From a virus, in the UHGV virus genome UHGV-1585826: a stretch of 11,552 bases of DNA; one strand, written 5' to 3'. The notes beneath the pieces are model-generated. The model saw only the letters and a program-made list of their open reading frames with translations, was not told the DNA's origin and ran no database searches. The translations under genes were made by a program, and so were the position numbers. Shown piece after piece: positions 2,529 to 5,500 of this stretch; the first letter of the stretch is position 1; the number at the start of each line of letters is the position of its first letter.

Positions 2529-5500
2529 ATGGCTTATTCCGATGAACAGCGCCCTGAAGCGCAATTTGGCAACCAGAGCCGCAACAGCCTGAACATTCAG
2601 CAGCCGGGAGAGACTGACAGCTATGATGTGTTTTTCTCCGATCCCAATCGCTGGAAGGACAACAGCACGTCGTTCAGCCTGGGCGATGTATTGCCAACTA
2701 TGGGGAAAGGTGTCGCCCAGTCCGTCCGGGGGACAGGGGAAATGGCCCGTGGACTCGGTGATGCGATGATTCAGAGCCCGGTAAAAACAGGGGCACGTAT
2801 TTTAAATGAGTTCAGCCGTATGGGGCTGCCGGGAGTAGCAACTGTTCAGGATATTTTTGTCGGTGGCAGCAAGGGGGCGGATGAGGTCATCGACACTCTG
2901 CCTGATGGAAAAAATGCGGTTACTGATACTGTCGGTAAAGGTCTGAAGGTCACAGGCAAGGCAGTCAGTGGCGGCGCTAAAGCCTCGGATGAATGGCTGA
3001 CTGGCAAGATGTCGCCGGGGGCGCAGCGGGCGCTGAATACACCGATGACTGAAGGATATGATGATTCAGCGGTCTGGGTAGCGAAAGGGGTTAACCTGAT
3101 TGGTGCGCTTGTACCGGATATGGTTGCAGGCGGTGTGACTAAAAAGCTGGGTGATGTCACTCTGCGAAAAGTGCTGACCGCCGGGCTGGAGAAAAAATAC
3201 ATCGCGGCAGGGATGCAGCCGGAAAGAGCCACAGCACTGGCAGCCGAAGCTGTCGATAAAAAAATGCCGGATTTTTTCCAGGCAGGCCTGATCACCCATT
3301 CCACTGTCAGTGCGCAAGGGCGGAGTGCAATGGCAGCGGCAGATGCTGTTCTTAACGCGGATTATTCTGAGCTGGCGAAGTCACCGAAATTTCAGCAGAC
3401 CTTTTTGTCAATTGATGCAGATCCGCAGCACGCGCAGCTTACTGACCGCCAGAAAATGGACCTGGCAAAAGAGCGTGTTGCCGATGAGGTGCGTGCGCAA
3501 CTGGCAACCGATCCTGAATTGCTGGCTGTGAATGCCATGGCGGCAAAACTGGGCGATGCTCAGTTGCTTAATCTGGCGATGCGGGGCACGGCGAAGACCG
3601 TTAAAAGCGGCATTGTCAGAAATGCCACGGAACAGGGGACGATTAATGCGGCGCAGGGTGGCTATTCACGCTATCAGGAAAACACGGCATTGCGTGAGAC
3701 CGCCGGAATGGATGTGTCACCGTGGGAGGGCGTGGCTGACGCAACGATCGAAGGTGCAGCCCTTGGTGCTGCAATGGGGGCACCATTCGGTGCGGCTGCC
3801 GGATATCGTGGAAAACGTCAGGCGGCAGATGAAGCAGCCATGCGTGAGGCTGAAAGCGTTCCTCAGGACGAATCGGCTCCGCAACCCGAACCGGTTGATC
3901 CGGTGGCACAGCATCGTGAATCTATGCAGGGGATGAATCGCGAGCAGCTTCTGGAACAGTATGCTGATGCGGATATGGCACATGAGGGAGACACGTCTGC
4001 CGTTCATCGCCGGGAAGCCGCCAGCCAGCTGTTGAATGAACTGGATGAACAGGCGAAGCGACAGGCGGTGATGGATGAGCTGAAGGCGAAGCCGCGCCCT
4101 GAACTGCTTGAGGAATACCGAAAACTCAGCCAGAAGGAAGGGCGTACTGATACTGAAGAGCAGCAGTTACAGGCAATACGTGATGTGCTTCGCCCTCAGC
4201 GGGAGGCCAGACCGGAGGCACAGCCACAGCCGGAAAATGCGGATGATGGCGACGGGAGTATTTACCCGACGGTGCGGTTCCGCGATCCGGATGAAGTTCG
4301 TATTGAAATTAACGAGAGTGGTGCGTCCAGACCAGCAGAACGCATTGAAAAGGTGCGTCCGGACAACCGTTATTTCACGGATGAAAAAAGTGCTCTGGGG
4401 AGCGACGTTTTCCGCAATGCCAGCGCCACCGGCCTGAAACCGTCCGTAGTGAAGAAAGGCGAGAATCAGTATGCCGTTGAAATGGATAATCCTGCGTTCT
4501 CTGAAGATGTGGCAACGGAGACCATTAACACTCTGGCTGACGGAGAGCGTATTACTGATGCTGATCCGATGGAACAGCCCGCGTTCATGCGTGACCCGCG
4601 ATTCCGTGGTTTTACGGGGGATGATACAGAAGTGCAGGCCCGTCTTGCCCGTGGCAACGCGCCGACGGCGGAAGAACTGGTGCGTTCCCAGATGGCTGAA
4701 GGTGATGCCGGTCCGACAGCACAGGAGTTAACTGAGCGTCCACGCCTTCCCGCTCCCGGCGATATTCATCCCGGACAGGGATATCCGTTACCAGGAGAAG
4801 TGGCGCGTACGCCGGATGAAAATCAGGCCGGACGTGGTGGTCGTTTTACCACAACCGGTGAGGTGAAGGGCCAGAGTTTCCAGAAAGGACGTGAGCAGGC
4901 ACCGGAAAATGCCGCTGGTCGCCAGGGGGAAATACTGGAGGGCGAAACAGTTCGTCGTGGTCTGCCGTCACCGGATGAGCAGAACGCCACAGCACCAGTG
5001 CGTGAAGGACTTCCTGCACCTGAAAGTCAGCGTGGGGTTGATATGCCACAGCCTGAATCACTCCCTCGTATGGTTCGTGACTCCCTTCCGGAACTGGCAC
5101 AGCAGGCAGAAGCACGCAGACAGACCGGGGATAATCGCCAGACCATAACCGATGTTCCGGATACTGAGGTGCCGGTGCCGGTAGATAAACCGAGCACTCA
5201 CCAGCAGGTGCGTGGTGCGAAAATTGAAGACTTTGGCGAGGAGATTAAGGGCGCGGCAAAACACCGTTATGCGCAGCTTGCTGAAGCTATGGGTAAAACG
5301 CTGGAGGATGGGGAGTACGCGACACAACCACTGAGCAAACTGTTTCCAAAGCCGGATTATGCCCGTCTGGAAAAAGAAGGTGTGGATAGTGACACGCTGG
5401 CAATGATGGCGTTGTATCGCAGTGAAATTCCCACCAGAACAAGCCGTAACATGCAGAAATGGATCAGCATTGTTAAAAGCGGTCGCGAAGCTACTGCCGG

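Follow-up and report, generated by a model that had tools for sequence, protein, structure and literature searches.

A conserved glycine-zipper segment at the end of the N-terminal module of a giant phage virion protein, with a possible role at the host envelope

The virus genome UHGV-1585826 was analysed as one stretch of 11,552 nucleotides, here called the window. It encodes a giant polyvalent virion protein of 2783 amino acids, a homologue of gp47 of phage phi24B, and the question raised by this locus concerns a short Gly/Ala-rich segment in the N-terminal part of this protein. Is it a membrane-active element of an ejected protein, a packing helix of a soluble domain, or a stretch of no consequence? 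A sequence-only reading of this DNA had described a hydrophobic helix at the end of the N-terminal region, within a membrane-active module tethered by a long disordered linker to enzymatic modules downstream. Judging from sequence comparison, a module common to giant encapsidated phage proteins ends in a conserved glycine-zipper helix, and the segment is this C-terminal helix. As for its role, which we infer by analogy, we lean with modest confidence towards a zipper that inserts into the membrane or packs helices where this module joins its cargo.

The segment IEGAALGAAMGAPFGAAAGY is the in-frame translation of window positions 3747-3806 on the plus strand, and corresponds to residues 407-426 of the open reading frame (ORF). 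It contains five glycines at an exact i+4 spacing (G409, G413, G417, G421 and G425), the sole i+4 glycine chain with at least four members in the whole 2783-residue protein. The 20-residue windows of the giant protein that rank highest for Gly+Ala content also fall here. Translation, glycine chain and composition thus bear out the Gly/Ala-rich segment that had been proposed at these positions. A glycine zipper is defined by Gly or small residues at i, i+4 and i+8, three or more in number, with apolar spacers and a helical conformation; the five glycines follow this spacing, the spacers are A, G, V, I, L, M or F, and the helix is predicted. The pattern, (G/small-G/small-h-h)n with a period of 4, has, if helical, one glycine face and one aliphatic face. 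No tandem DNA repeat was found beneath the zipper and the codons of the five glycines are not uniform, so this periodicity is a feature of the protein rather than of the DNA.

An exhaustive phmmer search with residues 1-440 as query found 99 proteins. Of these, about 70 are giant proteins, with 1500-4665 amino acids and 25-38% identity, which carry the N-terminal module at their own N-terminus. Among the distant homologues G417 is kept in 68/68, G413 in 67/68, G421 in 58/68 and G425 in 49/68, and when 61 giant proteins are aligned over their full length, no column but G417 is invariant. Relatives at 62-97% identity have G413, G417, G421 and G425 invariant with variable spacers, as well as an invariant E408 and R427-G-x-R-Q, and the alignment quality falls after Q431. 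Columns 410-423 are composed of 39% Gly, 19% Ala, 33% V/I/L/M/F, 6.6% Ser/Thr and only 0.3% charged residues.

Within the module, the zipper is the best-conserved, apolar element and the only one fully free of charge. No other conserved charge-free run is as long (14 columns, with a polar fraction of 0.4% in 69 diverged sequences), and the zipper is also the most hydrophobic 15-column window, with a family mean Kyte-Doolittle (KD) value of 1.19, ahead of 194-208. Such conservation bears directly on the simplest alternative, a functionless low-complexity Gly/Ala stretch that arose by chance. When the whole protein is shuffled at matched composition, chains of at least five glycines appear in 1.15% of cases, and when residues 1-430 alone are shuffled, in 0.46%, so around 1% of shuffles do reproduce the pattern; furthermore, BLAST treats the zipper as low complexity and masks it, which ends its alignments at residue 408. 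However, G417 and G413, kept at 25-38% identity as described above, are the best-conserved positions of the module. This conservation refutes the chance explanation, to which we give next to no credence.

An acidic residue caps the zipper, a basic clamp comes after it, and an acidic linker then leads to the enzymatic domains. The 12 residues ahead of the uncharged run are net negative in 63/71 sequences, and a lysine or arginine stands directly after the run in 57/71. Past the clamp, a stretch of 60 residues has a net negative charge in 69/71 homologues (mean -7.1). Nearly all phmmer alignments of distant homologues run out between query residues 424 and 437, and conservation drops sharply past Q431, in agreement with the claim that the segment closes the N-terminal region. 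Residues 432-1040 have a net charge of -29, with 8% proline, 19% hydrophobic residues and a mean KD of -0.95, and no family match was found in the giant protein ahead of residue 1047. This composition, together with the absent family matches, fits an extended linker; for the long disordered linker proposed beforehand, it is from composition that the support comes.

A segment at the exact domain boundary ahead of a long linker could also be a flexible Gly-rich hinge, or a site of proteolytic maturation, between module and cargo. In Iyer et al. (PMC5512222), the zincin peptidase domains of polyvalent proteins are in fact proposed to process them. On the contrary, the strict i+4 spacing, the conserved aliphatic spacers and the helical periodicity are unlike a hinge: the peak lies at 90 degrees for hydropathy averaged over the family and at 95 degrees for the frequency of Gly, both helical, with no beta signal. 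AlphaFold2 (AF2) also predicts a helix at this point. In addition, PMC5512222 describes the N4 virion RNA polymerase (vRNAP) as packaged unprocessed, and the phi24B preprint reports processing of gp84 and none of gp47 (bioRxiv 10.64898/2026.04.10.717836). A hinge or cleavage site is, to our judgement, highly improbable.

On profile evidence, the N-terminal module is homologous to the N-terminal domain (NTD) of gp50, the vRNAP of phage N4. A hidden Markov model (HMM) of the module matches the first 700 residues of N4 gp50 with 41.5 bits, over N4 residues 88-446, while the best of 500 locally shuffled controls does not exceed -1.2 bits. Removal of the zipper columns from the HMM lowers the score only to 39.5 bits. 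In an hhalign comparison with the N4 gp50 NTD the module reaches a probability of 96.6% with an E-value of 6e-10, query residues 256-417 being aligned to N4 296-439. Nine further N4-like vRNAP N-termini were taken from different Schitoviridae genera (tblastn, fetched loci); the module HMM matches eight of these NTDs with 24-58 bits and one with 7.7. Pairwise phmmer and BLASTP comparisons of the giant protein with N4 gp50 returned nothing, and the homology is visible with the family profile only.

The signature common to the module and the N4 NTDs includes L282, S285, F/Y288, A313-R/K314, the motif E-x-x-E-E/G-x-Q-G...Q-N, and D-x-x-x-G-V leading into the Gly-rich segment. Three Gly-rich segments of the module, 52-80, 187-226 and 401-425, align with N4 116-141, 230-265 and 420-444, and so both proteins have three Gly-rich uncharged segments at equivalent positions. 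In both, the module stands at the N-terminus of a giant encapsidated protein that is unresolved in virion maps, and is followed by a low-complexity linker and enzymatic domains. The cargo is different, with an RNA polymerase in N4 and LPD5, zincins, MuF_C and LPD38 here. The zipper also differs. Its equivalent in the N4 clade reads GxxxGxGxAGhhQxPG, where G409 and G413 are kept, 417 is replaced by Ala and 421 by a conserved Gln; the N4-like proteins thus keep the G409/G413 equivalents only, whereas the LPD-type clade has a strict zipper of 4-5 glycines. The strict zipper is accordingly a feature of the LPD-type clade. The N4 equivalent (residues 420-446) is nonetheless the longest uncharged run of the 3500-residue gp50.

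Within the conserved block ahead of the zipper, columns 369, 373, 385, 397, 401 and 402 are near-invariant in distant homologues and common to N4-like NTDs. Two of these columns set the present protein apart. Q369 (3633-3635) and N373 (3645-3647) are Glu in 63/68 and 65/68 distant homologues, respectively, and most or all aligned N4-like NTDs also have Glu at the equivalent positions, in the motif E-x-x-E-E/G-x-Q-G. These two Glu, nearly invariant elsewhere, are Gln and Asn in the clade of Stx (Shiga toxin) and Salmonella phages. As read from the alignment, the conserved acidic pair is neutralised in this lineage.

The N4 domain is the branch of this family with experiments. It was reported to enter nanodiscs, with predicted membrane-spanning helices at residues 224-278 and a low-complexity linker of ~100 amino acids after the NTD (PMC13434306). 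In the model of those authors, the NTD helps to build an inner-membrane complex and the polymerase is membrane-anchored via the linker (PMC13434306). The homology to this domain gives independent support to the membrane-active N-terminal module, tethered to enzymes, that the sequence-only reading had suggested.

For the zipper itself the picture is mixed. In favour of a membrane segment, it is the longest charge-free and the most hydrophobic stretch of the module, with acidic and basic flanks. Several observations weigh against this. The best 19-residue KD mean (KD19) of the zipper is 1.07, compared to the usual ~1.6, and the transfer energies are unfavourable (Wimley-White octanol +8.8 and Hessa +7.9 kcal/mol), so that the segment falls short of a canonical transmembrane (TM) helix of 19-20 residues with a KD of ~1.6 or more or a favourable insertion energy. 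Its strictly charge-free core spans 14 columns, and the median length of the uncharged run, 18 residues, is short for spanning a bilayer. The predicted membrane helices of N4 (224-278) align to residues 187-226 and not to the zipper, which is degenerate in the N4 clade, the only branch with experiments, and carries there a conserved Pro. Lastly, AF2 places the zipper in a long helix of a folded helical domain, which would suit a packing role equally well. A standard TM predictor would probably not call the zipper. The hydrophobic helix described beforehand is therefore better described as an apolar, weakly hydrophobic one, its helical nature being favoured by AF2 and by the 90-95 degree periodicity.

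Weak hydrophobicity is not peculiar to this protein. Across homologues, the most hydrophobic 19-residue stretch of the module reaches a median KD19 of 1.27. In the present protein the highest KD19 (1.38) belongs to residues 182-226 (window 3072-3206), where W183 (58/61), G192 and G201 are conserved in homologues. Under the same calibration, the zipper has a KD of 1.0 with 28% Gly and the membrane-spanning helices of N4 gp50 have 0.69; for comparison, N4 gp52 72-88 has 0.72 with 29% Gly, and the C-terminal tail of P22 gp7 has 0.97 with 30% Gly. The proposed or predicted membrane segments of ejection proteins reported to be membrane-active thus miss the same TM thresholds, although N4 gp52 forms channels in bilayers (PMC13434306). 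Ejection proteins have to be soluble in the capsid and to pass through the tail (review PMC8954989). Since the N4 gp52, P22 gp7 and N4 gp50 segments are also below threshold, the combination of weak hydrophobicity and high Gly content is normal for ejection proteins.

Structure prediction depended on the depth of the alignment. With 13 sequences, AF2 gave a predicted local distance difference test score (pLDDT) of 44, which is uninformative. With 48 diverse sequences, the module was predicted as all-helical with a pLDDT of 72 and a predicted template modelling score (pTM) of 0.60, and residues 402-442 form a single continuous helix with pLDDT 75-89. In BFVD, Foldseek picked out the initial fragments of other giant phage proteins, with E-values down to 2e-5; some of these entries bear the annotation LPD protein, others that of a podovirus "RNA polymerase (fragment)".

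This continuous helix, predicted with moderate-to-good pLDDT inside a folded all-helical domain, brings in the strongest competing explanation, in which the zipper is a purely structural packing element of a soluble module, or of a soluble homo-oligomer in the capsid, with no membrane insertion. GxxxG and AxxxA packing motifs are also common in soluble helical proteins. The hydrophobicity under TM thresholds and the mapping of the N4 predicted membrane helices to another segment point in the same direction. The composition of the core does not: ~39% Gly with 0.4% polar residues, over 14 columns in 69 sequences, is atypical of a helix exposed or partly exposed to water. The conserved flanks, acidic before and basic after, resemble those of a membrane anchor, and the homologous N4 NTD is membrane-active. 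We hold a purely structural role to be unlikely, while giving it appreciable weight. It is also compatible with membrane insertion, the two readings being not exclusive. The sequence-only reading had named a buried core helix in a soluble domain as an outcome that would refute it. Proteins that pass from a soluble to a membrane state usually bury their insertion helices before the trigger, and for this reason such an outcome is a weak and not a decisive argument.

A further explanation is that the zipper docks onto another virion component, for instance the barrel of the portal, the lumen of the tail or a partner ejection protein, and serves packaging or ordered exit in place of membrane insertion. 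In the N4 model, the gp50 NTD is found with gp51 around the portal before ejection (PMC13434306), and in the window the giant gene adjoins the genes for the portal and a scaffold-like protein. The N-terminus of the T6SS (type VI secretion system) DNase effector Tde1, which bears a Gly zipper, also binds an adaptor (Ali et al. 2023, PMC10240207). However, Gly substitutions in Tde1 affect permeabilisation and spare secretion and adaptor binding (PMC10240207). Moreover, encapsidation in N4 is reported to need a region that includes the MPTase domain, well outside the NTD (Iyer et al., PMC5512222), and no partner resembling N4 gp51 or gp52 was identified in the window. Docking as the main role of the segment strikes us as improbable.

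Returning to the membrane-inserting or helix-packing zipper that we favour, Tde1 is by analogy its closest mechanism with experimental support. The GxxxG repeats at the N-terminus of Tde1 are needed for inner-membrane permeabilisation and for effector delivery into prey cells (PMC10240207). Both proteins have consecutive N-terminal GxxxG motifs upstream of an enzymatic domain and are delivered, or here would be delivered, into a Gram-negative cell. Tde1 differs in being small and T6SS-delivered, with a zipper of ~40 residues in two helices, compared to one helix of ~18 residues here. The likeness is one of mechanism, with no claim of homology.

Other known systems resemble the segment in composition. 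Proteins of the P22 gp7 / T7 gp14 type, the outer-membrane component of the podophage ejectosome, are classed as membrane-inserting (PMC8954989). They are likewise ejected and have Gly-rich, charge-poor, weakly hydrophobic segments, and they differ in having ~200-230 amino acids and in not being part of a giant multidomain protein. Homology to P22 gp7 (PF25688) was considered and ruled out: one homologous segment gave a weak match with E 0.07, below the cut-off, and hhalign of the module with the gp7 family covered 23 Gly-rich columns with a probability of 1.2%. What the segment shares with gp7 is its composition, or at most a function.

The glycine-zipper families of Pfam consist of small envelope proteins, usually with paired zippers. 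These families and the zippers of channel-forming proteins (Kim et al. 2005, as cited in PMC10240207) share with the segment the GxxxGxxxG pattern and the small or aliphatic spacers. Membership in Gly-zipper_YMGG (PF13441), Gly-zipper_OmpA (PF13436) or Gly-zipper_Omp (PF13488) was rejected, with scores of 16.3, 16.1 and 12.6 bits compared to gathering thresholds of 28.9, 27 and 25, and E-values of 0.008-0.14. Eight of the nine homologous segments tested have no match to the Pfam glycine-zipper families.

With regard to the protein that carries the zipper, the claim that it is an injected virion protein is upheld for its homologue as far as virion location and proposed ejection are concerned. 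The gp47 of phi24B, with 2811 amino acids, is an abundant virion protein by mass spectrometry that is absent from the cryo-EM (electron cryo-microscopy) map, and its authors propose that it is an encapsidated ejection protein contributing to a trans-periplasmic conduit (bioRxiv 10.64898/2026.04.10.717836). The same preprint does not mention Gly-rich or membrane segments of gp47, and lists its organisation and role among the open questions.

Under the favoured reading, the protein would be soluble in the capsid, where the zipper would lie against the other module helices. Once ejected via the short tail, the module would engage the envelope of the host; N4 suggests by analogy that this is most likely the inner membrane. 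The zipper would then insert, probably together with residues 182-226, and its glycine face would pack with its own copies or with those Gly-rich helices. The basic clamp would remain at the cytoplasmic interface, with the linker leading to the zincin and LPD domains on the cytoplasmic side. The Tde1 repeats follow this logic too: they permeabilise the inner membrane and are required for the DNase to be delivered into prey. A more far-reaching version, which we find doubtful, is that module and zipper are a portable membrane-translocation device of N4-type vRNAPs and of LPD proteins in Stx, Vibrio, Aeromonas and other podophages. Its copies would oligomerise via the glycine face and form or complete an inner-membrane channel for the cargo, and possibly for DNA.

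The features of the giant protein are collected in Table 1. The window has ~95% DNA identity to Stx2a-converting short-tailed phages of the 933W/phi24B type, and its genes of note are the C-terminal part of a P22-like portal, a 371-residue acidic protein and the giant ORF. In terms of Pfam domains, all above cut-offs, the giant ORF has LPD5 (1047-1190), LPD1 (1351-1430), MuF_C (1740-1829) and LPD38 (2466-2671). These four domains, the two zincin-type motifs HEWFH and HEIIHH, and the P22-like portal gene upstream place it among the phage-type large polyvalent proteins, which combine several LPD or effector domains with zincin motifs amid virion genes (Iyer et al. 2017, PMC5512222). Such proteins are predicted there to be packaged and injected. 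The passages of PMC5512222 that were searched do not describe the N-terminal module, its glycine zipper or a membrane role.

Table 1. Features of the giant protein, with coordinates in the window.
Feature	Position	Strand	Basis or remark
Giant polyvalent virion protein, 2783 aa, homologue of phi24B gp47	2529..10880	+	ORF; Pfam domains; gp47 proteomics
N-terminal module, predicted all-helical, residues 1-431	2529..3821	+	~70 giant homologues; AF2; N4 gp50 NTD homology
Second weakly hydrophobic Gly-containing segment, residues 182-205, VWVAKGVNLIGALVPDMVAGGVTK	3072..3143	+	KD19 1.38; conservation
Conserved block, residues 364-402	3618..3734	+	Consensus K-G-x-x-x-E-G-x-T-E-A-x-Q-G...Y..N...........D-P..G-V
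Glycine-zipper segment IEGAALGAAMGAPFGAAAGY	3747..3806	+	Residues 407-426; zipper proper G409-G425 = 3753-3803
Basic clamp R427-G-K-R430	3807..3818	+	Directly after zipper; R427, G428 and R430 invariant in close relatives
Acidic, Pro-rich, poorly conserved putative linker, residues 432-1040	3822..5648	+	Composition; no family match
LPD5	5667..6098	+	Cargo domain; Pfam
HEWFH motif, residues 1274-1278	6348..6362	+	Zincin-type; cargo region
LPD1	6579..6818	+	Cargo domain; Pfam
HEIIHH motif, residues 1541-1546	7149..7163	+	Zincin-type; cargo region
MuF_C	7746..8015	+	Cargo domain; Pfam
LPD38 with several uncharged Gly-rich hydrophobic runs	9924..10541	+	Pfam; uncharged runs

Of the two zincin-type motifs, HEIIHH is kept family-wide as RHExLxHHG, and HEWFH lies inside residues 1172-1427, which match the NCBIfam model CLCA_X below its cut-off (154 vs 260 bits). 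Further downstream, residues 2390-2620 (window 9696-10388, overlapping LPD38) contain five uncharged, Gly-rich, weakly hydrophobic runs: 2390-2412, 2439-2454, 2494-2510, 2526-2543 (with G2528xxxG2532xxxG2536) and 2606-2620. The DarB-like phrog_10089 also matches this region. By its sequence, the LPD38 region may be a second membrane-active region.

Upstream of the giant gene, the portal (window 21-1187, plus strand) has a C-terminal third made of a long Gln/Ala/Glu-rich helical region (QQQQAQEQQQQELQ...AEAARAQAAAQRD...), which fits the P22-like barrel reported for the phi24B portal. The 371-residue acidic protein is encoded between the portal and giant genes (window 1345-2460, plus strand); it has no Pfam match, and its one PHROG assignment, 479, is a family of unknown function. 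A scaffold or some other internal protein is a possible identity.

As for the distribution of the module, a 3066-residue giant protein with the same N-module is found in Vibrio phage D460 (L002 8626-17826), and around 100 related Vibrio phage records and Aeromonas phage phiARM81mr also have giant proteins of this kind. These phages have genomes of ~60 kb and come from seawater and oysters; among the matches listed, the giant proteins are annotated as hypothetical. In the chromosomal prophage of GCA_900095885.1 (L004 8001-14909) the giant gene is split into four consecutive or overlapping ORFs: a 434-residue N-module that ends 8 residues past the zipper, one ORF of 96 residues, one of 1493 residues with LPD5 and MuF_C, and one of 304 residues with LPD38. 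This is either a decayed copy or a frameshifted assembly. The 434-residue ORF (P0059) was considered as a stand-alone N-module protein and rejected, being a fragment of this split gene.

In terms of what was already known, the polyvalent protein family, the membrane-active NTD of N4 and glycine-zipper membrane segments have all been described; the homology link reported here is new. No description of this zipper, or of a relationship between the giant protein of Stx phages and the N4 NTD, was found in the searchable literature. Pfam and NCBIfam have no model over the N-terminal module, either in the giant ORF or in N4 gp50, and no functional name was obtained for it from NCBIfam and PHROGs.

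The homology ties the N-terminal module of gp47 to the experimentally studied NTD of the N4 vRNAP. It suggests that one envelope-engaging N-terminal domain, so far without a curated family, is common to giant ejected proteins across different families of podophages. Shiga toxin genes are spread by Stx-converting phages, and what is at stake is how short-tailed phages bring DNA and proteins across the envelope of E. coli. If the translocation-device reading were true, a single giant protein of Stx phages would take on the roles that are split among several ejection proteins in T7, P22 and N4.

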